Shown here one piece after another: positions 1-32,182 of a stretch of 64,000 nt of DNA. How positions within the stretch are numbered: the first letter of the stretch is position 1; every line of letters starts with the position of its first letter. The notes below the pieces were generated by a model. The model was not told the DNA's origin. It did no database searches and saw nothing but the letters and a program-made list of their open reading frames with translations. Source of the stretch: Candidatus Latescibacterota bacterium (GTDB taxonomy: Bacteria > Latescibacterota > UBA2968 > UBA8231); contig CBDCSU010000005.1 of assembly GCA_965221775.1 (NCBI GenBank), forward strand, positions 1,248,001 through 1,312,000, written 5' to 3'. The translations under genes and the position numbers were made by a program.

Positions 1-786
1 GAGGTCGTGACTCGCCAGCGGCACCAGCTCCGCCTCCTTGGCCGCCTGCACCCGGCGGCGCAGTTCAGCACACCTCTCCAAGTCGGCGACAGGATCAAGC
101 CTGAAGGGTTCAGCGTCGCTGTCGGTGGGGGTCGCCGACATCTCAACCAGGCCGTAGCGTTCAGGCGGCCCCCAGCACCGCAAGGCTCCTACCTGCGCCA
201 GTGTCTCTGCGAAGGGAAGGCCTGGATGGAGTTCGTCAAGGATCACCAGACAGTCGTTGCCTGCAAGGCCCGCGTGAATCGGCCACATTGTCGGCTTCAC
301 GCCCTGGCCACGGAAGAGCAAGCGGGAGCCGAACTGATCCACGGTGGAGACAGCCACCCATGGTTGATCCGGGCGGTGACTCCACTCGTCCACGGGAACG
401 CCGCCCCGCAAGGCGGCGCATCCCAACGGTTCTCCCGGGCTCAAGGTTTCAAGCCGTTGTCTCACTCTTCGCAGGATCGGCGTGTCGCCTGCCTCTATGC
501 GGTCGAGGATCCGTAGCGCCCGCTTGCATGCCTGATGGACGACGACGCGTCTGTCCACGACGAAGACGATTCGCCGTGGCGCATCTGCGGGCCTGAGGGC
601 AAGGGCAAAGACGGCCACATCGAGCACGGCGGTCTTCCCGGAGCCGGTGGGCAGGTCGATCACCTTCGGCCACTCTCCGCTCTCGAGGACCTGACTCGCC
701 AGACGTTGCTGCCAGGGGAAGGGACTCTGACCGTGCACGTCCTGGAAGAAGAACGGAAAGTGGCCGGGCAGGAGGTCTTCACTCAT
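1..786 (-). CDS. cas3: Type I-G CRISPR-associated helicase Cas3, N-terminal part (runs off window start)
   Basis: Not in the ORF track. Manual translation from ATG 786 (ATGA overlap with csb2 stop) gives MSEDLLPGHFPFFFQDVHGQSPFPWQQRL...LPTGSGKT (Walker A)...PRRIVFVVDRRVVV...STVDQFGSRLLFRG...LVILDELH, typical of I-G Cas3. Confidence 0.93.
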   Translation of the reverse strand, partial: MSEDLLPGHFPFFFQDVHGQSPFPWQQRLASQVLESGEWPKVIDLPTGSGKTAVLDVAVFALALRPADAPRRIVFVVDRRVVVHQACKRALRILDRIEAGDTPILRRVRQRLETLSPGEPLGCAALRGGVPVDEWSHRPDQPWVAVSTVDQFGSRLLFRGQGVKPTMWPIHAGLAGNDCLVILDELHPGLPFAETLAQVGALRCWGPPERYGLVEMSATPTDSDAEPFRLDPVADLERCAELRRRVQAAKEAELVPLASHDL

Positions 787-2318
787 CGAGACTCCGGCAC
801 TGGGCGCATCAGTCCCAGCCCCATGAATCGACCGGCCCCGAGCATCAGTGGCCCCTCTACGGGGTGCTTGAATGTCACCGCTGCGTGAACGAGCTGGCGT
901 CTGACCAGTGTGCCCTCCCGCCCTCTCTGGCTGAATGGCGGATAGCGCCCGGCCGGCGTGGACCCCGCGATGAACGGGCTCAGCGCAATCTCCACTGCCG
1001 AGGGTTCCGGCAATCCGACGTGCACGCAGGCGGCTGCGACGGCCCCCTCGGCCAGTCTCCAGGCCTCGGCTCGCGCACCGACCCTCCCCGCCCTCAGGCT
1101 GCCAGGATGTCTTGGCAGCGCAATGGGCGTCGCCGACACCCACCGCCGGGAAGGACGATGCCAGGCACTTGGCCGCAGGTCGGCCGCGTCGGGAGGCCCG
1201 CGGTGGCGGTCCATGCGGAGTACGCCCTGAGATCCCAGAGTGAGCCTGAGGGGATAGGGCTGCTGGGGAGCCCCCTGCTCCCACCTGCGGACCGCCCGGA
1301 AAAGGGCCCGGCGCGTGTCGTCTCCCAGGGATCTCGGCACGGACAGGGCGATACCGAGCAGACGCGCGTCCCCGCGCTCAGAGCCGATGTTCGGCAGAGG
1401 AAGGAACGCCACATGGGGGTCGCAGGTCGGCTTGCCATCCGGCCTGTGGCCGCTCAGCTCTTCGGGAATCGGATCCTCGGCGTGCTTGAGAGTGGCTCTT
1501 CGCATGGCCGCCGCAGAATCCACTGCTCGTGTAGCTGGAAGGAAGCGGCAGTTCTGCGCGAATGCGAAGACGATCCATTCGCCAAGAGTGTTGGGCTGCA
1601 AGGTTGGCTCATCCTGCACGGTCTCCGCTGTGGAACTGTATCGAACGTCCGTGTATGGCAGGGCTCGGGGCCTGACGCCCTGGTGTCGGAGATACTGCCG
1701 TTGGAGCGCTCCAAGTTGGCCCCGCCTTACAGCGCGCAGGCCATCTGTACCGCGGCCTGGCGTGTAACTGGCGCGAATAGACTCCCGCACCACACGGCAG
1801 GAAACGAGGGAAGAGGAGTGGCCCAGCCGGGCAACTCGGCTGAGAAGGTGGTCCATGGTCTCGCCCATGCCTCCTGGAGCAGCCTCTTCCCAGAGATATG
1901 TAGCCCGGGGCCGGCGGGGAGTCACGGACGGGAAGAACCGCTCCTGGGGGAGAAAGTTCCTGTCCTGTTTGTCCCTGCTGTCTCTTGGCTCAGTCCGATG
2001 GTCCGGGAGTATGCGCATCGATGAAGAGGGGTTCGAGTCGATGATGCGAACATCGTTCACCGGAACGAAATGCGAGACTACCCTGCGCGGCGCGGCTTCC
2101 GACGCGGCGATGGCGGGTGCTCCCTGGGCCTCGAGCCATTCCAGGGCATCGCGTTCCTCGGGATCGCGACCATCCTCGGCCCAGACCGCCACGAGTGCAG
2201 AGAACACACGCGCCGGGTGCGGTGGCCACTCCCCCCGCCGGCGGTCGTTGTGGAACGTGGCCACGTACCGCTCCGTCAGGAAGTTCACTTCGATGCCGAA
2301 ATTCGCCAAGCGAGACAT
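783..2318 (-). CDS. csb2: Type I-G Csb2 (Cas5/Cas6 fusion)
   Basis: N-terminal EWPPHPARVFSALVA motif, WVSATP motif, C-terminal Gly-rich Cas6 loop GPLMLGAGRFMGLG; lies between csb1 and cas3. Confidence 0.93.
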   Translation of the reverse strand: MSRLANFGIEVNFLTERYVATFHNDRRRGEWPPHPARVFSALVAVWAEDGRDPEERDALEWLEAQGAPAIAASEAAPRRVVSHFVPVNDVRIIDSNPSSSMRILPDHRTEPRDSRDKQDRNFLPQERFFPSVTPRRPRATYLWEEAAPGGMGETMDHLLSRVARLGHSSSLVSCRVVRESIRASYTPGRGTDGLRAVRRGQLGALQRQYLRHQGVRPRALPYTDVRYSSTAETVQDEPTLQPNTLGEWIVFAFAQNCRFLPATRAVDSAAAMRRATLKHAEDPIPEELSGHRPDGKPTCDPHVAFLPLPNIGSERGDARLLGIALSVPRSLGDDTRRALFRAVRRWEQGAPQQPYPLRLTLGSQGVLRMDRHRGPPDAADLRPSAWHRPSRRWVSATPIALPRHPGSLRAGRVGARAEAWRLAEGAVAAACVHVGLPEPSAVEIALSPFIAGSTPAGRYPPFSQRGREGTLVRRQLVHAAVTFKHPVEGPLMLGAGRFMGLGLMRPVPESR

Positions 2319-2323
2319 GCTGC

Positions 2324-3577
2324 CTACTCAGGGGAATGTTCGGTGGCCGACAACTTTCTGCTGCGGAGAATCAGTTCGATCAGCTTTGGTGCTGGTGTCA
2401 GGCGAAGGCCACCGGTTTCCCAACCGATTCCGACCGCTTCCGCGCGCTCGGCAGCAGAAGACAGGACTTCGGCAGCCATGCTCTTGTCCAACTGGACGAC
2501 CTCGCTGGCAGAGCCGTCGCGGGAGAGCATGCTGGCCCGTAGCGGGTGGGTTGGAAGGAGGAGACATCGTGACCGCAGGTCGAAGTCCTTCTCGTACTGA
2601 TAGGCAATGGCAGCGACGCCCAATGCTGCAACCGCGGTGCGGGCCGCTGTCTCTGCTTCGCTGTCGAACCCCTTGAACCTCAGGCGGCGAAGTGCCGCGA
2701 AAGAGATAACGGTGGTCTGCCGGGCCTTCGAGATCGTGACGCCGCCAGCCTCGGCGTCTATGGAAGGAACGATGTTCCCGTGGTTGATCTTTGACGGCTG
2801 ACCAGCCTCCCCGCTCATGCTGCCCCGCGAAGCGTATACAGGGTTCCCCTTCTTGTCCTTCTCCGCTGCCTCCGGGTCGTGAGTCCAGACCTCGGCCGGA
2901 TCCTCGCTGTTGAGCACGCGATCCTCCGGCGCAACCCTTTCGATCTGGAGTGGGTCTATGCGGCTTCCCACCTTCTTCCCCACAGCGGCGTCGAAACCGA
3001 CGATTTCCGATACATAGGCGCGTTGGAAACGCGGGCCGAGTCCGCCTTTCGGGCCCGTCGAATCCCACATACCGAACAACAGGGAGGTCGGCGAGTACCG
3101 GAACAGATCGGTAGCATTGCGCGGGGTTGCGTCGGTAATCGCTTGTCCCACATCCGACAGTCGAAACAGCGTTCCGCCGAACAGGCTGTCCCGGAAAATC
3201 GCATCTGCCAGGCGATGCGGCGCTTCGAGGACGGTGACCTTGTCATAGTCCGTTGCGTTCCCGGTCCCAGAGAAGTCCACGTACGGGACCGGGAAGGAGA
3301 GTTCCTCTCGCTCCCACCCCTCCAACAGGGCCAGCTCCGCCCTGTTGGCTTGTGACGCCACGGAGTCCAGCAGGACCGTAATGCTCGTCCTCTCCCCTTG
3401 TCCAACTTGACGCTCCTCAATGGCGTACCGGTGCTCGAGGCGTCCCTCCACCCTGTAAGATGGGGGGAAGACCTTGTCTCCCTCGCCACCAGCAGGCTGC
3501 AATGTCATGCGGGACCGCAAGGCCACCGCGCCGCCGGCGACAGCATCAAACAGGCGATCGAATGTGAGTCGCGACAC
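2324..3577 (-). CDS. csb1: Type I-G Csb1 (Cas7 backbone subunit)
   Basis: Motifs LQPAGG..DKVFPPSY, LLDSVASQANRAE, EAPHRLADA, PTSLLFGMWDS, GSRIDPL, DFDLRSRCLL; start re-assigned to GTG 3577, 6 nt after an AGGAGG RBS. Confidence 0.93.
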   Translation of the reverse strand: MSRLTFDRLFDAVAGGAVALRSRMTLQPAGGEGDKVFPPSYRVEGRLEHRYAIEERQVGQGERTSITVLLDSVASQANRAELALLEGWEREELSFPVPYVDFSGTGNATDYDKVTVLEAPHRLADAIFRDSLFGGTLFRLSDVGQAITDATPRNATDLFRYSPTSLLFGMWDSTGPKGGLGPRFQRAYVSEIVGFDAAVGKKVGSRIDPLQIERVAPEDRVLNSEDPAEVWTHDPEAAEKDKKGNPVYASRGSMSGEAGQPSKINHGNIVPSIDAEAGGVTISKARQTTVISFAALRRLRFKGFDSEAETAARTAVAALGVAAIAYQYEKDFDLRSRCLLLPTHPLRASMLSRDGSASEVVQLDKSMAAEVLSSAAERAEAVGIGWETGGLRLTPAPKLIELILRSRKLSATEHSPE

Positions 3578-3609
3578 CCTCAGCCTCCTGAAAAAGGCTG
3601 TGTGCGGCT

Positions 3610-4110
3610 TCAGGGAGGGCAGGCGCTGGGCGCGCGCCTCCGGGCGCAGGTGTGTGTACTCGCCACTGGAGTGCCCAGCTCCGCCTTTTCCTCGGGTGCA
3701 ATGCTGGCCCGAGCTTTGGCCAGTTGCCGCTTGATGCGTCCCTTCCGGCCTGCCTCCAGGGACCTCGTGCGCTTTTCCGCGCAGACGAGGCATCGCCGGG
3801 CCGCCGGTCCCCTGTGCTCGATAGAGACCCCGCAATCCGCACACTCCCGGCGGCGTCGGCCGAGGGCCAGGGCTCGGATCGTCTCGCGCACGAGACTACG
3901 GACGCGCACCGGCGAGATTCCGTGCCTTGCGGCGATGGCGTCGACTCGGAGCTCCTCCCCCTTGAGGCCGTAGTACTCCGAGAGGATCTGCCGCGCGCGC
4001 TCCGGCAGACCCGCGATCAGATCGAGCGCCCAGGAGCGGATCTCGGCATCGGGTACTCCCTCGTGAAACTGGCTCCACAGGAGTATGCGCAGGGAACGGT
4101 GATGGTTCAC
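3610..4110 (-). CDS. Small sigma-70 region-4-like HTH protein with C-terminal CxxC...CxxC zinc finger
   Basis: LPERARQILSEYYGLKGEELRVDAIAARHGISPVRVRSL resembles the sigma region 4 HTH; CADC...CLVC follows; AAGGAGG RBS 9 nt before GTG; ends 32 nt before csb1. Confidence 0.7.
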   Translation of the reverse strand: MNHHRSLRILLWSQFHEGVPDAEIRSWALDLIAGLPERARQILSEYYGLKGEELRVDAIAARHGISPVRVRSLVRETIRALALGRRRRECADCGVSIEHRGPAARRCLVCAEKRTRSLEAGRKGRIKRQLAKARASIAPEEKAELGTPVASTHTCARRRAPSACPP

Positions 4111-4236
4111 TTCACTTCGCCTCCTTCTGTTTCGTGGCAGAGCCTTCAGCCTCGAGAGAATTCCCCTATCAGCTGGCCGAGACTGCGTGCTTCGATTCCA
4201 GGCGCGTGGGATGGTATGGAAGGCCTGCCTCGAAGA

Positions 4237-4259
4237 GTGATTGATAACACGCTTATACC
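4237..4259. promoter_or_regulatory. Palindromic box 1 (GTGATTGATAACAC) with adjacent minus-strand TATAAG -10-like element
   Basis: The 20-mer ATTGATAACACGCTTATACC (4240-4259) recurs exactly at 4453-4472. Confidence 0.55.
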
Positions 4260-4302
4260 TTCAGAGCTGTCCACAACGATCCTGGTCCCTGAGTTTGAAG
4301 TC

Positions 4303-4388
4303 GGGACAGCAACCCCTCATGCCCGAGTAGCCCACCCGATTCGGGAGGCCGCCCTGTCGGGCAGGAGCCCGGGAGGGGTTGCTGTCCC
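4303..4388. ncRNA. Structured stem-loop element copy 1 (candidate RNA)
   Basis: Perfect 16-bp inverted repeat GGGACAGCAACCCCTC (4303-4318) / GAGGGGTTGCTGTCCC (4373-4388); inner stem TGCCCGA/TCGGGCA (4320-4326/4357-4363). Confidence 0.55.
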
Positions 4389-4449
4389 TTCGAGACGCAC
4401 ACACACAGACACATAACTCACGCAAAGTGGACACTTTCAAGGTTTTTCA

Positions 4450-4472
4450 TTTATTGATAACACGCTTATACC
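4450..4472. promoter_or_regulatory. Palindromic box 2 / repeat copy with TG-n-TATAAG extended -10-like element on the minus strand
   Basis: 4453-4472 is an exact 20-bp copy of 4240-4259. Confidence 0.55.
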
Positions 4473-4617
4473 ATTCATGCTGGCACCTGGCCAGTCAGGA
4501 GACCAGAAGGGCTCGATGCTCGACTCTGCAAACTGTACATAGGGCCGATTGTGAACCATTGCAAGAGCAGGACCCACGAGCGTGATCCCCTTGTATCGAT
4601 CCTCCTTTGAACGAATC

Positions 4618-4708
4618 GGGATAGCAGCCCCTCACTCCTACAGGAACCTCCCGGAGGAGGGACCGAGAGACCCTACTGGGTTTTGAGCCCGTGAGGGGTT
4701 GCTATCCC
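4618..4708. ncRNA. Structured stem-loop element copy 2 (candidate RNA)
   Basis: 18-bp stem GGGATAGCAGCCCCTCAC (4618-4635) / GTGAGGGGTTGCTATCCC (4691-4708) with one G-U pair; compensatory C:G to T:A change versus copy 1. Confidence 0.55.
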
Positions 4709-4797
4709 TCTCATCGCTACGATAGCAATTGCTGTGGGAGGTATGCAACTAACAATTACCCAGAGAGCGGCCATTGATTGCAGGTGGGCTTCGGAGA

Positions 4798-4811
4798 GTG
4801 TTTGATAACAC
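4798..4811. promoter_or_regulatory. Palindromic box 3 GTGTT-TGAT-AACAC
   Basis: Perfect 5-bp arms; 4792-4811 matches 4231-4250 at 18/20. Confidence 0.5.
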
Positions 4812-5024
4812 AATTGGTGAATTGCTACCTGTGGGTTCATCTTTTGGGGTGTGAGCGTGTGCTCAAGGACTTTTCCGCCTGGGCCTTGCGCGCTCGGCGT
4901 ACTGAGACCGGGCGACCCGGACCGCTGCCGAGATGGCATCCCGAGTCGGCGGAATCTCTCTGATGGGGAAAAACCTGCGAGAGACGCCCATCCACCGGGG
5001 ATGGCGAGGGGCGCCGGCCGGCCC

Positions 5025-6983
5025 TCAGCCCGGGCGGTACTCCAGCACCACCCGGTTCTCCGGCCCCCGCAGGCCCATGGTGTTCACCGCCCGCGCCCGC
5101 AGGCGGTTGCGCCCCGGGCGCAGCTCCCACTCGAAGACGGGACCGCTCGCCTCCCACTTCCCCCGGTCCAGGCTGACCTCGAAGCGGTCCAGGTGGGGGA
5201 TGGGGCCGGAGAGCCGCACCGTCAGCGCCGCCGCCGTCTCCGTGTCCTGCAGGTCGATCCGCGTGCGGTTCAGGTCCCAGTAGAAGTCCTCGGGCCGGTT
5301 GGTCTGCAGCGAGTACTCGGGATACCTCGGGTCGAGGCTGTCCGTCCACCACAAGTGGCCGTCCCAGTGGTACTGGTCCATCCCCTGCTCCAGCTCCTGC
5401 GGCTCGGGGCGGTAGAGGTGGTCGTTGCGCAACGGCATGCCGAAGCGCTGGTAGAGCTGAGCGAACATCGTCCGGAGCCGCTCGTCGGGGACGGGCGGCG
5501 GCGGCACGAACTCCAGGTCCTCCATCCGGCCGGCGGCGCCGAGGCGGTGCATCTCCAAGGCGTTGATCGGCACGCCGGCCTCCTCGTACTGGAAGGCGAC
5601 CTCGTGGCCGGGCAGGAGGCCCGGGTCCTGGAGGATCCACTTGCCGTGCTCGTCGGACCAGATCTCCGCCAGGCAGTGGTGGTCGACGATCACGGGCCGG
5701 GCGTGGTAGCCGAGGGAGCCGGCGCACTGGCTGAAGACGGCGGCGTAGTGGGTGCACATGCCCAGGGCCAGGTTCTGCGGCGCCAGCTCCAGGATCTCGA
5801 GGGCGTCCCACTGGGGGCAGTAGTTGTACTCGTTGTCGTTCCACCCCTCCCACTGCCGGCGGACCCACTGGCGCAGCAGGGCGAACCTCTCCATCTCGGT
5901 CTGCCCGGGGGCCACGACCTCCTCCAGGCGGTACTTCTCGCGCAGGTGGCGCATGCGCGGGTGGTGCGGGTCGGCGTAGTCGAAGGGGTAGGAGGAGACG
6001 GCCAGGTCGTTCTCCGGCGCCGAGATCACCTCGATCCGGCGGCGGTTCGCCCCGACGGCGCGCCCGGAGGCCTCGATGGTGACGCTCTTCAACAGCGGCG
6101 TGACGGCGGGATCGCCGCTGGAGAGGGTTGCCCGCCATTGCAAGAACCGCGCCCCGGGCAAGGGCTCCCCCGAATCGGCGGCGCGCCAGGAGGTCCACTC
6201 GTCCGAAGCGTACAACGCCGTCGAGCCGGATCTCACCTCGAAGCGCACCGAGGTCCTCGGCGGCATTTCGGTAGCGGCCGACAGGCGCAGGGCCTTCAGG
6301 TCAAGGCCGGGAGCGACCGCCTCCTCCGCGGCCAGGTCGATGACAGGAGAGGTGGCCACACCCTCCCGCGGATGGCCGCGGACCCTCAGGCGGACGACGT
6401 ATTCCCCCGAGAGGTCGTTGTCCGCTCCGAGCATGTCCCCCTTCCACTCGCCGCGGCCCTCGAGGCGCTTGAAGCTGTTGCGGCCGGGCTCGTCGGCGTC
6501 GATGACCAGCGACCCGGCGCCGGAGAAGACCAGCTCGTTGCGGCCCGGGCGCAGCCAGCGGCCGGGGATCGTCTCACGGTCCCAGCCGCCGGTGAGCATC
6601 CTCTCGAGGTCCTGCACGTGGCGGATCTCGTGCCCGTTGACCGAGATGAGCAGGGGCTCCTCCTCGGTGCCGCCGCCCCCGTGGAACAGGACCTCCGCCG
6701 ACTCCACCGCCGCCGGCAGGTCGAAGAGCTTCTTCGCCTCCACGGCGGGCGTCAGGCTCTCACGGATCTTGGAGCTGCGCGCCATGGCGTCGGCGATCAG
6801 CCACGTCGGCGCCAGGCAGAGCCCGCCCTCGTCGGCGCAGTAGCCGGTGAAGCGGTCGCGGGTGCAGCCGGCGAGGGCTTCGCCTTCGAGGGTGGTCTTC
6901 CACTCGGTCATGGGTGGTGCGGCGGAGGTGGTGCCGGCGGACACCAGCAGCGCGGCCAGGGCGAGGCGGGCGAGGCGGGGCAC
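5025..6983 (-). CDS. Secreted transglutaminase-like domain protein
   Basis: Signal peptide after GTG 6983 (AAGGAGG RBS); Cys-His-Asp-like triad GMCTHYA...HHCLAEIW...WILQDP. Confidence 0.7.
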   Translation of the reverse strand: MPRLARLALAALLVSAGTTSAAPPMTEWKTTLEGEALAGCTRDRFTGYCADEGGLCLAPTWLIADAMARSSKIRESLTPAVEAKKLFDLPAAVESAEVLFHGGGGTEEEPLLISVNGHEIRHVQDLERMLTGGWDRETIPGRWLRPGRNELVFSGAGSLVIDADEPGRNSFKRLEGRGEWKGDMLGADNDLSGEYVVRLRVRGHPREGVATSPVIDLAAEEAVAPGLDLKALRLSAATEMPPRTSVRFEVRSGSTALYASDEWTSWRAADSGEPLPGARFLQWRATLSSGDPAVTPLLKSVTIEASGRAVGANRRRIEVISAPENDLAVSSYPFDYADPHHPRMRHLREKYRLEEVVAPGQTEMERFALLRQWVRRQWEGWNDNEYNYCPQWDALEILELAPQNLALGMCTHYAAVFSQCAGSLGYHARPVIVDHHCLAEIWSDEHGKWILQDPGLLPGHEVAFQYEEAGVPINALEMHRLGAAGRMEDLEFVPPPPVPDERLRTMFAQLYQRFGMPLRNDHLYRPEPQELEQGMDQYHWDGHLWWTDSLDPRYPEYSLQTNRPEDFYWDLNRTRIDLQDTETAAALTVRLSGPIPHLDRFEVSLDRGKWEASGPVFEWELRPGRNRLRARAVNTMGLRGPENRVVLEYRPG

Positions 6984-11620: not shown

Positions 11621-12297
11621 GCTCGTCCTATCGCCGAGGGAAGGCCTTCCCAGTCGGAAGTCGTTTCGTCCGGGAGTTCATCCGGCACTCGCGGTTCCTG
11701 GGCAGCATATCTGCCCTGCCGGAACCAGATGGTCCGCATGCCCAGCCTCTTTGCCGGGATCACATCGTTGTCGAGCCGATCGCCAATCATGATCGCCTCT
11801 GAAGGCGGGAATCCTGCGTGGTCGAGTATTGTACGGAAGAACCCCTCATCAGGCTTCTTGATCCCGATGGTTCCCGACACCTCCCTGTGGCGGAACCAGC
11901 GCAGCACACCCAGCTCGTCGAGGACCTCCGTGATGCTGGCCGGAGCGTTTCCCGCCAGGGCAAGGGTGTACTCCTGGGCGAGCTGCTCGAGAGCTGCAGC
12001 GGCTCCGGGATACAGCTCCAATCCGAGGGCCCGGATCTCCGGGTAGTGCGATCGGACCTCGGCGGTGATCTCATCGAAGAGTCCCACGTCAGGCCTGGCG
12101 AAGTGCCAGGTGATGGCGTGCATGGGGCTTGGAACGAACTGCAGCATCTTCTCGCGATCCAACTGCTTGTACTCATCAACAGACAACTCGAAGCCGAACT
12201 GGGCGAGCGCGCCTCGATGGGCTTCCATGAGGGCGTCCTGGTGACCGACGGCGTCGAGAATCGTCTCCCCAACATCGAAGAGCAACACGGAACTCAT
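11611..12297 (-). CDS. HAD-family hydrolase
   Basis: LFDVGET, KKPD, MIGDRLDNDVIPAKRLGM. Confidence 0.88.
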   Translation of the reverse strand: MSSVLLFDVGETILDAVGHQDALMEAHRGALAQFGFELSVDEYKQLDREKMLQFVPSPMHAITWHFARPDVGLFDEITAEVRSHYPEIRALGLELYPGAAAALEQLAQEYTLALAGNAPASITEVLDELGVLRWFRHREVSGTIGIKKPDEGFFRTILDHAGFPPSEAIMIGDRLDNDVIPAKRLGMRTIWFRQGRYAAQEPRVPDELPDETTSDWEGLPSAIGRACC

Positions 12298-29520: not shown

Positions 29521-31526
29521 CGCGTCTCCTCCAGGGCCCGCGCCAGGGCCGGGTCGATCCACCAGGTCTCGGGGAAGCCGAGGGAGATCATCGGCACGAC
29601 CGCCGGCCGCGCGAACCGGTTCCAGTAGACCAGGCGGTGGACGGTGGTGTGCCAGTGGGGGATCACGTAGTGGCCCCAGGTCAGCACCCGGTCCAGGGCG
29701 CGGGCGGCGGCGACCTGATCGGGGCGGGTCTGGGCGGCGATGAGGCCCTCCACCAGCTCGTCCACCACCGGGTCGCGGACCCCGGCGTAGTTGCGGGTCC
29801 CCGGCGTATCGGCCGCCGCCGAGGACCAGTAGTTGCGCTGCTCGTTGCCCGGCGACAGGTACTGGTTCCAGGCGCGGACGATCACGTCGTAGTCGTACTC
29901 CTGCAGCCGCCGGTAGTACTGCGACGCGTCCACGGTGCGGCTCGTGGTGGCGATGCCGAGCCGCTCCAGGTGCAGCCGCACCGGTCCCACGACGCGCTCG
30001 TACGAGGGCCGCACGAGGAGGAACTCGAAGGCCATGGCCTCCCCCGTCTCCTCGTGGACCAGGACGCCGTCGCGCAGCACCCAGCCGGCGTCGCGCAGCA
30101 TGCGCCGCGCCTTGCGCAGGTTGGCGCGGATCGAGCCGTCGCCGTCGGTGGACGGCGCCCGGTAGGCCTCGCCGAAGACATCGTCCGGCACACGGCCCCG
30201 GTAGCTCTCCAGGATCTCAAGCTCACGGCCTTCGGGCCTGCCCGTGGCGGCCAGCTCGGAGTTGGCGAAGTGGCTCTCGGTGCGCGTGTAGAGTCCGTGG
30301 AAGAGGGTGGCGTTGGTCCACTCGAAGTCGAAGGCGTGGCTTAGCGCGTGGCGCACGCGGGGGTCGGCGAAGCGGGCGCGCCTCGTGTTGAAGACGAACC
30401 CCGACATGCCGCGGATGCGGCGGTTGGGCAGCTCCGCCATCACCAGGCGGCCCTCCCGCACCGCGGGATGGTCGTAGCCGGTGGCCCACTCGCGGGCCGA
30501 GCCGACGGCGCGCAGGTCGTACTCGCCGGCCTTCAGCGCCTCCTGGGCGACCGTGTCGTCGCGGTAGTAGTCGTAGGTGATGCGGTCGAAGTTGTGCTGC
30601 CCCCGCCGCGCCGGCAGGCCCTCGTCCCAGTTGCCGTCGACCCGGGCGTAGGTGATGGAGCGCCCCGGGTCGACCGACTCGATGCGGTAGGGGCCGCTGC
30701 CCAGGGGCGGCTCCAGCGTCGTCTTGGTGAAGTCCCGCGCCTCCCAGTAGTGCTTCGGCAGGGCGCGCAGTTGGCCGAGGACAACGGGCAGCTCGCGGTT
30801 GTCGGTGGCGGCCAGCTCGAAGGTGACGGTGCGGTCGTCCTCGGCGACGGCCGTGTCCACGTCGGCGTAGAAGGTGCGGTAGAAGGGGGTGCCGTGGAGC
30901 ACGAGGGTGTAGAAGGAGAACACGATGTCGTGGGCGGTGACCGGCTCGCCGTCGTGCCAGCGCGCCTCGGGGCGCAGGAAGAAGGTGACCGAGCTGCGGT
31001 CCGGAGCCAGCCACATCGACTCGGCCAGGTGCCCGTACTCCGACAGCGGCTCGTCCTGGGCCTTCTCGCAGAGGCGGCTGTAGATCAGGCTCCAGGTACC
31101 GGCGGCGGCGACCCCCTTGAGGATGAAGGGGTTGAGGCTGTCGAAGGTGCCCACCCGCGCCAGCCGCACCTCCCCGCCACGGACCGCCTGCGGGTCGGTG
31201 TACTCGAAGTGGGTGAAGCCAGGCCCGTACTTGAGGTCGCCGGTCACGGCGAGGGCGTGCACGGCCGGGGTGCGGGTTGGGGTTCCGGTCTCGGCGGCGA
31301 CGGGGGTGAGGGTGAGGGGGATGGCGGCCAGCAGGCCCGCCAGGGAAGCCACGTGGATCGAGGTGAAGCGGATCACCGAGTTCGGCGCCAGGAGGGCGGC
31401 GGCCAGCAGGCCCGCCAGAGAAACCACGTGAAGCGAGGTGAAGCGGATCACCGAGTTCGGCGCCAGGAGGGCAGTGGCGAGGGTGGTGGCGCGGGTGCGC
31501 AGGGGTACCGGGGCCAGGCGGATCAC
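29517..31526 (-). CDS. yejA: Peptide ABC transporter substrate-binding protein
   Basis: [39 protein letters not shown]; start uncertain. Confidence 0.88.
31323..31472. repeat. 75-bp tandem duplication within the yejA signal-peptide region
   Basis: Two near-identical units encoding [12 protein letters not shown](L/I)HV(V/A)SLAGLLAA. Confidence 0.9.
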
Positions 31527-32124: not shown

Positions 32125-32182
32125 TGAGTATTATTACTCATCATGTTGAGTAATTCGTATATATGTTGAGTAATTCGTATAT
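32125..32182 (+). promoter_or_regulatory. Operator-like palindrome TGAGTA-N4-TACTCA plus exact 20-bp tandem duplication over the start codon
   Basis: 32125-32140 palindrome; ATGTTGAGTAATTCGTATAT at 32143 and 32163. Confidence 0.6.

Follow-up and report, generated by a model that had tools for sequence, protein, structure and literature searches.

The described elements closest to those examined here are CreR and CreA, degenerate CRISPR mini-arrays with which the Cas effector represses a cas or toxin promoter. For subtype I-U, creA-like elements have been reported and, according to a preprint (bioRxiv 10.1101/2023.03.10.532045), they were found by hand. As for type I-G, PMC9638904 describes Csb2 as the nuclease that processes the CRISPR RNA precursor (pre-crRNA): it binds the repeat hairpin tightly but not the 8-nucleotide (nt) handle, which contacts Cas7.1 only, and it cleaves 4 nt 3' of the hairpin base; the protospacer-adjacent motif (PAM) is TTN. 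Here we analyze two long stem-loops, SL1 and SL2, in a 64,000-nt stretch of the genome of a Candidatus Latescibacterota bacterium (GCA_965221775.1, contig CBDCSU010000005.1, positions 1,248,001 to 1,312,000; hereafter the window), where they lie upstream of a type I-G operon, at 190-600 nt from its first gene, and within the same genomic island. These elements are most likely CRISPR-derived and guide-like in design, their function as guides being only putative. Our preferred, still tentative interpretation is that they are an eroded or repurposed form of a CreR/CreA-like, stem-enclosed unit of the type I-G locus, read on the minus strand.

Two minus-strand genes border the 914-nt gap (4111-5024) that holds the stem-loops, which are built from the following parts, given in window coordinates.

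4303-4388: SL1, arms 4303-4318 and 4373-4388 around a 54-nt loop (repeat search, RNA fold).
4388-4303, SL1 read on the minus strand: 5' strand of the stem at 4388-4373, constant stretch with GGGCTC at 4372-4354, ~33 nt variable, 3' strand of the stem at 4318-4303.
4365-4372, minus strand: GGGCTC motif of SL1, GAGCCCGG on the plus strand and CCGGGCTC on the minus, directly after the stem.
4618-4708: SL2, arms 4618-4635 and 4691-4708 around a 55-nt loop (repeat search, RNA fold).
4708-4618, SL2 read on the minus strand: stem, GGGCTC directly after it (4690-4685), constant sequence to 4673, variable sequence from 4672.
4685-4692, minus strand: GGGCTC motif of SL2, GAGCCCGT on the plus strand and (AC)GGGCTC on the minus.
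4719-4736: loop-less palindrome just past SL2 that repeats the outer arm motif (GATAGCAA / TTGCTGT), found by inspection.

Both hairpins had been noticed in an earlier sequence-only reading of this DNA, and an inverted-repeat search of the window together with RNA folding bore out their stems. The 16-nt arms of SL1 are 100% complementary, and those of SL2, 18 nt long, are 94% complementary, an A-to-G change in the stem giving a single G-T on the plus strand and A.C on the minus. Predicted fold energies of SL1 and SL2 were −57.8 and −57.5 kcal/mol on the plus strand (z −5.3 and −6.0) and −62.0 and −56.0 kcal/mol on the minus strand (z −5.7 and −5.5), and in each of these four folds 0 of 200 shuffles folded as well. 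SL1 is one of only three perfect inverted repeats in the 5.36-Mb genome whose arms reach 16 nt or more across a gap of ~22-80 nt. As that reading had also proposed, the two copies, 315 nt apart, combine conserved arms with unrelated loops: the arm blocks are identical at 17/19 and 23/25 positions (91% alike), whereas the loops resemble each other at the level of chance, 43% of 1000 shuffles aligning as well (45 and 50 nt compared). One difference between the copies is compensatory (GGGAC..GTCCC in SL1 vs GGGAT..ATCCC in SL2), and given the three arm differences we put the chance of one such pair at ~0.03-0.06, by estimate and not by computation. The plus-strand G-U is likewise present in the sequence; any single stem transition yields a wobble on one strand, however, and the strand signal from the G-U alone is small. 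Read on the minus strand, both copies follow the same plan of stem, 0-2 nt, GGGCTC, ~19 nt of semi-constant sequence, 33-35 nt of variable sequence, and stem.

Comparison with the loci of related Csb1 proteins is what points to a CRISPR-type design. G106 and G109, the nearest relatives with 81-83% Csb1 identity, as well as several others at ~50%, carry a mini-array with a single spacer immediately upstream of csb1. Its first repeat is degenerate and retains ..CCTC[A/G]TTGAAG; a stretch of spacer length follows, and then a second repeat, either full or hairpin-only. Among 93 upstream regions, a rule-based scan recovered this handle-plus-hairpin arrangement in 16. In eight rows of the scan, which represent seven distinct places (L026 and L037 being one), the beginning of the pseudo-spacer agrees with a site at most 250 nt upstream, with no more than one mismatch in 9, and all eight matches are TTN-flanked. 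Such TTN-flanked matches lie 38-168 nt upstream in L026/L037, L029, L030, L031, L041, L072, L112 and others, and the matched site of L030 is found just downstream of a perfect TTGACA-17-TATAAT promoter. By their sequence, these mini-arrays look like CreR-type autoregulators of type I-G. The locus of G109 is disrupted, with a cas3-like fragment and a 455-aa transposase open reading frame (ORF) between mini-array and csb1 (L027 5636-7831).

When the DNA upstream of csb1 was scanned for long inverted repeats, elements that are themselves enclosed by a stem came to light in L091 and then in L089 (L089 5535-5619 and L091 5529-5619, plus strand of the loci). In cas direction they read stem, GGGCTCC[A/G]TTGCGG[C/T], 44 nt starting with TTGACC.., stem, 3-4 nt, and a box beginning TTGACAGC.., which contains a TTGACA −35-like hexamer ahead of the operon. 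In the arrays of L089 and L091, which count 47 and 55 repeats, the repeat ends CATTGCGGC; the last 8 nt of this repeat, that is, the handle, are complete in the L091 element and carry two changes in that of L089. (The large arrays downstream of the two loci are L166 and L167, whose CATTGCGGC repeat is missed by a model of the ATTGAAGC type.) Over its first ~21 nt the pseudo-spacer matches the promoter box at 18/21 positions in L091 and 16/21 in L089, and pseudo-spacer and box have changed together at two positions between the loci. The stems, of 10-11 bp, differ at three pairs, all three compensatory by hand count. Since GGGCTCC differs from the corresponding letters of the loci's own repeats, it is a feature of the element and not of the arrays. 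By their predicted pairing, L057, L061 and L072 are a second example of a stem that encloses handle and pseudo-spacer: the 8 nt directly before the CCTCATTGAAG handle (CTTGGCAT) are complementary to the end of the pseudo-spacer (ATGCCAAG), with a wobble variant in L061 (by inspection).

The GGGCTC motif of SL1 is common to SL2 and to the elements of L089 and L091. Of 138 such motifs scanned on both strands of the 93 upstream regions (2.5 kb each), the ones that come no more than 3 nt after a stem of 9 bp or longer, closed 35-85 nt downstream, belong exclusively to the window, L089 and L091, and all of them lie in cas direction. The enclosed stretch measures 54-55 nt in the window and 59 nt in L089/L091. 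The sequence-only reading had preferred the plus strand and had noted GAGCCCG before both 3' arms; the motif is indeed there, and GAGCCC is the reverse complement of the GGGCTC that is shared with L089/L091 in cas direction, which argues for the minus strand instead. A search of 301 genomes with the pattern GGGCTCCRTTGCGG gave 23 matches, a rate similar to that of a reversed-pattern control, and among the 20 loci fetched a stem was found at the two known places only. Aligning the elements of the window and of L089/L091 four ways with MAFFT gave no structurally meaningful result.

The gap also holds a set of short repeated boxes.

4111-5015: non-coding right end of the island, as delimited by congeners without the island.
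4240-4259: box 1, 20 nt, identical to box 2, 43 nt from SL1.
4453-4472: box 2, the same 20 nt as box 1, with 64 nt between it and SL1 and 145 nt between it and SL2.
4801-4819: box 3, a partial copy with core and left flank; 35-nt repeat 4216-4250/4777-4811, 77%.
4848-4866: anti-box, an inverted degenerate copy, 15/19 complementary to boxes 1 and 2.

The 10-nt box core TTGATAACAC occurs three times in the genome, always in this gap. Box 3 precedes SL2, box 2 precedes SL1 and box 1 precedes the operon in cas direction, and the reverse complement of the box shares with the L091 promoter box, by inspection, the core AGCGTGTT and the ending CAAT. The boxes may be promoters, operators of P0001 (the regulator encoded by the first gene of the operon) or former guide/target pairs. 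Together with its flanks, the anti-box forms with 4231-4275 an imperfect inverted repeat of 44 columns, of which 31 are Watson-Crick pairs, seven are G-T on the plus strand and none on the minus, and six are other mismatches. Contigs from two RNA libraries, which carry no strand information, cover 3721-4158 and 4433-4638; parts of the gap without such cover are not counted as evidence. Arms and boxes are unchanged in strain variants from other sponge metagenomes, whose differences, too few for a test, fall in the SL1 loop and in the spacers from one element to the next. Small ORFs across arms and boxes were discarded on both strands, their frames and stops differing between copies (by inspection).

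The system has an ordinary CRISPR array of its own, with four repeats and three spacers, on the minus strand directly after the cas8g-like gene (C5:1244878-1245133; L001 12878-13133), and SL1 and SL2 are therefore not its main guides. Its repeat is 36 nt long and has a 6-bp stem; the end reads CCTCATTGAAGC or CCTCACTGAAGC (ATTGAAGC or ACTGAAGC in the comparison of handles). The four repeats differ slightly and score 24-42 bits with a covariance model for which relatives supplied 14 canonical repeats. Against this yardstick several results weigh against our interpretation. Degenerate repeats of relatives, used as control, still score 12-34 bits with the repeat model, yet the TTTGAAG site of the window (4293-4310) scores 1.4 bits and the best site in 4100-5030, on either strand, 2.7 bits. 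The 8 nt after GGGCTC(C/A) agree with the own handle at 2/8 and 1/8 positions (hand count). Neither variable stretch matches a promoter and SL1 has no target in the island. The own-repeat handle and the promoter target were both absent from the window units; because these are two defining features of CreR/CreA, membership in that class is not claimed. The start of the SL2 variable stretch (4661-4672, minus strand) does contain 12 nt identical to a TTC-flanked site in cas3 (C5:1247170-1247181, plus strand, window −830 to −819), the only TTN-flanked 12-nt match in the genome, for which our estimate of the chance expectation in the search of the locus is ~0.02-0.05 PAM-flanked 12-mers. That site is, however, mid-gene, and Csb2 cleavage 4 nt past the stem (the 4+8-nt rule) would place the 12-mer at spacer position 7, not 1. 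The wobbles work on the plus strand only (one in SL2, and seven of the 13 non-Watson-Crick columns of the box/anti-box repeat), an excess that is not significant when base composition is kept, 15% of mismatched-column shuffles doing as well (p ~0.15). The target flank in the relatives is TTA in L091 but AAC, not TTN, in L089. Finally, what ties the window to L089/L091 as a family is a single 6-nt motif together with geometry, and this in a single further lineage.

Other ways of finding a guide in the hairpins fared no better. TTTGAAG (4294-4300) and TTTGAAC (4606-4612) do stand before the 5' arms, and had been compared to the repeat end that forms crRNA handles; besides the low model score, they match a repeat end at no more than 10/14 aligned positions with gaps, and their offset from the stem differs between copies (2 vs 5 nt). 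Treating the arms as a guide:target pair gave a flank other than TTN in all four strand/arm assignments (by inspection). For the three own-array spacers, and likewise for the sequence that follows the last repeat, the first 12 nt have scattered matches in the genome, none of them in 4111-5024. A whole-window search with the repeat model found nothing in the gap; its best match, probably due to chance, lies at 12221-12262 on the minus strand (11.2 bits, E 1.5) and ends CCUCAUGGAAGC. With the same model, no canonical hairpin that might act as a second degenerate repeat appeared at spacer distance; by analogy with L089/L091, the long-range stem could stand in for it. The window keeps a 16-18 bp stem, the adjacent GGGCTC, a ~19-nt semi-constant and a ~33-35-nt variable stretch, and the upstream position. 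Because stem and GGGCTC are kept while handle and promoter match are lost, the window units would be relics or put to a different use. The sequence-only reading of a constant scaffold with a variable insert, guide-like in nature, is upheld in part: the design of L089/L091 and the location, which is that of the crRNA-like units of relatives, speak for it, and the lack of TTN at the arms and the existence of an own four-repeat array against it. The handle it proposed is wrong, and so, probably, is the strand.

In the intact elements of L089 and L091, the stem would take the place of the repeat hairpin, to which Csb2 binds and next to which it cuts. With linker and handle after its 5' strand and the spacer before its 3' strand, such a stem would be topologically equivalent, at its inner end, to the base of that hairpin, and one split repeat could serve both as cutting site and as 3' hairpin. 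The resulting RNA would guide the effector to the operon's own promoter, leading to repression as in an ordinary CreR circuit. The window units would be transcribed with, or just ahead of, the operon; Csb2 may still bind them at the stem and GGGCTC, with feedback on cas expression, and SL2 might guide the effector to the 12-nt TTC-flanked site in cas3, while the sigma-region-4 protein P0001, along with the boxes, would have taken over control of the promoter. As Csb2 binds the hairpin and not the handle, loss of the latter would be less damaging in type I-G than elsewhere. A bolder version, which we consider improbable, is that the hairpins are working Csb2 substrates that need no handle. The long-range stem would then be a circularly permuted repeat hairpin, its 3' strand corresponding to the first half and its 5' strand to the second; a single unit of half-repeat, spacer and half-repeat could be cut and loaded, so that the effector, or Csb2 alone on the operon leader, would tune the operon and cas3 with no canonical repeat.

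The same CRISPR origin may also have ended in loss of function altogether, with crRNA-like units decaying after P0001 took over and with arms that are alike because they stem from one repeat or because template-switch repair maintains the complementarity of palindromes. This is what the missing handle, repeat score and promoter target would suggest, and it agrees with an orphan regulator placed where relatives have a small winged helix-turn-helix gene and a mini-array, with an element confined to this lineage and with strain variants that include no informative change in the arms. Simple decay, though, is not expected to leave arms, GGGCTC and boxes 91-100% alike around loops at chance similarity; the compensatory pair and stems longer than those of intact relatives (16-18 vs 10-11 bp) also tell against it, and we judge a functionless relic unlikely. 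Rather less likely in our view is a structured non-coding RNA of ~650 nt (~4227-4882) on the plus strand, divergent from the operon and engaged in regulation unrelated to crRNA, with box 1 and the anti-box as closing helix and SL1 and SL2 as internal hairpins. Its case is built on the fold of 661 nt, which is more stable on the plus strand (−258 kcal/mol, z −4.3) than on the minus (−249.9 kcal/mol, z −3.1) and shows the closing helix in minimum free energy and centroid structures of the plus strand only, on the plus-strand wobbles and on the RNA-library contig over 4433-4638. That contig is unstranded, however, and DNA may occur in an RNA library; the wobble excess is within what composition alone allows, one strain variant alters 4235, a wobble position, without compensation, and this RNA has neither an Rfam match nor a homologue in 150 genomes of the phylum nor a sigma-70-like promoter (none at the standard threshold; best site at a looser one, 8/12).

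Explanations at the level of DNA or of transcription boundaries are weaker still. The arms, the palindrome at 4719-4736 and/or the four boxes could be operators bound by P0001 or another regulator, with looping between half-sites ~70 bp apart, an arrangement favored by the neighboring gene for a DNA-binding protein of sigma-region-4 type, by a box core confined to this gap that also has one inverted copy, by the return of the outer arm motif as adjacent palindrome and by the 70-73 bp between arm centers, near seven helical turns by hand arithmetic. A nucleic-acid stem is nevertheless where one would sooner expect complementarity of 16-18 nt, far beyond a half-site, together with a compensatory change; the box itself is no palindrome, and the stems of L089/L091 covary freely, as fits pairing better than protein recognition. 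Operators are accordingly improbable as the explanation of the hairpins. Hairpins that insulate the cas operon from read-through out of the upstream host gene would make sense of an island inserted between co-directional host genes (~25 nt apart in G002) and of the high stability on the minus strand also; but neither strand of 4000-5100 gave a site in a scan for intrinsic terminators, both hairpins lack a U-tract after them whichever strand is read, and conserved GGGCTC, boxes and two paralogous copies would be left unexplained, all of which makes insulation very improbable.

Searches for a wider family returned no kin of the stem-loops. Rfam 15, run on 3800-5300 at E ≤10, gave one unrelated match inside the regulator gene (29.2 bits, threshold 50). 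Sixteen 16-mers resemble an arm with at most two mismatches in the genome, four being the arms themselves and 12 isolated single arms; a DNA search for SL1 and SL2 in 60 relatives found nothing, and a covariance model of the two copies matched, among 151 genomes, only these copies in the own genome, weak matches in 3 of the other 150 being unrelated sequences without cas genes nearby. A metagenome pattern for both inner arms hit 28 stretches, all unrelated palindromes and none with outer arms or GAGCCC, and a 19-nt pattern had 0 matches in viral contigs. The phage or plasmid origin of the loops that the sequence-only reading had suggested checking gained no ground: blastn of 4200-4900 yielded no phage match, and on the plasmid side 41 records with one 36-nt match (E 0.05), which we take as chance. 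The element hence does not fall into a genome-wide mobile-repeat or riboswitch family, the outcome that reading had named as fatal to it. Dispersed repeats of the repetitive extragenic palindrome (REP) or miniature inverted-repeat transposable element (MITE) kind were set aside, as two copies in this one locus stand against the many scattered copies of such repeats. An identity as CRISPR array was dismissed on the 315-nt distance between copies, the lack of a repeat-model match and the true array elsewhere, and that of intrinsic terminators on the absence of sites and the loops of 54-55 nt. Judged by their general features only, integron attC sites (neither an integrase nearby nor bulged bases), a nut-like box-plus-hairpin site (no downstream plus-strand gene) and a hok-type toxin mRNA (no convincing hydrophobic peptide) were likewise discarded.

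The operon downstream of the stem-loops runs in the order P0001, Csb1/Cas7g, Csb2, Cas3g and a Cas8g-like 'Cas3-extension' protein, and its genes map as follows.

3610-4110, minus strand: first operon gene, encoding P0001, 166 aa, sigma-70 region 4 helix-turn-helix plus CxxC..CxxC.
2324-3577, minus strand: csb1 (Cas7g), probable start 3577.
783-2318, minus strand: csb2, the Cas5-Cas6 fusion.
1-780, minus strand: 5' part of cas3g, which continues past the window start and is followed by the cas8g-like gene and the four-repeat array.

The scanned ORFs included no cas1, cas2 or cas4. P0001 is absent from all 91 related loci examined; a word-indexed search revealed no relatives beyond its own cluster, and an exhaustive one gave only distant matches, mostly to long proteins with several such domains. 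Array, four cas genes, P0001 and the entire hairpin region make up an 8.3-kb island (window −3288 to 5015; C5:1244712-1253015) that is missing in three genomes of the same genus. Because these congeners lack the whole stretch, the hairpins are part of a horizontally acquired island. Its flanks join exactly in G002, where the flanking genes are co-directional, and other short DNA occupies the site in G006 and G007; from these sequences, the site looks like a variable hot spot. Csb1 relatives at 62-83% identity (L037-L116, 80 of the 259 relatives) come from Latescibacterota, Chloroflexota, Gammaproteobacteria, Acidimicrobiia, Spirochaetia, Binatia, Thermodesulfobacteriota and one Nitrosopumilaceae archaeon, the labels being those of the metagenome-assembled genomes (MAGs), which points to wide spread of this Cas family by horizontal transfer. 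Many of the MAG names suggest sponge symbionts.

Several repeats were recorded in passing. Large ankyrin-repeat proteins adjoin the island (L001 1411-3504 and 4070-6181), and tandem repeats with a 66-nt period in coding-like DNA at C5:457700-458100 and C6:2458850-2459600 are, in our reading, leucine-rich-repeat-like; eukaryote-like repeat proteins are typical of host-associated bacteria. The window itself contains a 75-nt tandem duplication with 94% matches (31323-31472) and a perfect A+T-rich tandem repeat of 2 × 20 nt (32143-32182, ATGTTGAGTAATTCGTATAT) in a genome of 70% G+C.

If our interpretation holds, type I-G would regulate itself through single-unit crRNA-like genes in which a covarying long-range stem replaces the second repeat, a compact design of interest both to the study of Cas autoregulation and to the construction of minimal guide cassettes, and the window copies would show the fate of such a circuit after a protein regulator was recruited. 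Substrates without a handle would, if real, represent a new way to make guide or decoy RNAs from one split repeat. Should the copies be relics only, they would serve mainly as a worked example, with clear CreR-like units and TTN-flanked promoter targets as by-product, in a Cas family spread across many phyla of mostly sponge-associated microbes.

Set beside known systems, the window units share with REP and MITE palindromes the inverted repeats around a short non-coding core, and differ from them in having two copies at one locus and none in 60 genomes searched by DNA, 150 searched by model, or the metagenome and viral pattern scans. With canonical type I-G crRNAs they have the effector genes in common, and the hairpin-dependent Csb2 step could apply to them, going by PMC9638904; the own 36-nt repeat with its 6-bp stem, however, is not matched by the stem-loops. 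They resemble CreR/CreA in lying in a cas intergenic region by effector genes, in joining a constant, repeat-derived part to a variable part of spacer length and in belonging to a Cas family whose other members carry clear examples with TTN-flanked partial targets, whereas they lack the conserved 8-nt handle, the second repeat and the PAM-flanked promoter target, and are enclosed by a long-range stem of 16-18 bp. No stem-enclosed design turned up in the published passages searched. The nearest counterparts are the elements of L089 and L091, which keep the handle of their own arrays and a pseudo-spacer copying the −35 box, have stems of 10-11 bp and occur as one unit per locus, but which share with SL1 and SL2 the orientation to cas, GGGCTC directly after the stem, an enclosed stretch of 54-59 nt and a nearby box with the core AGCGTGTT.

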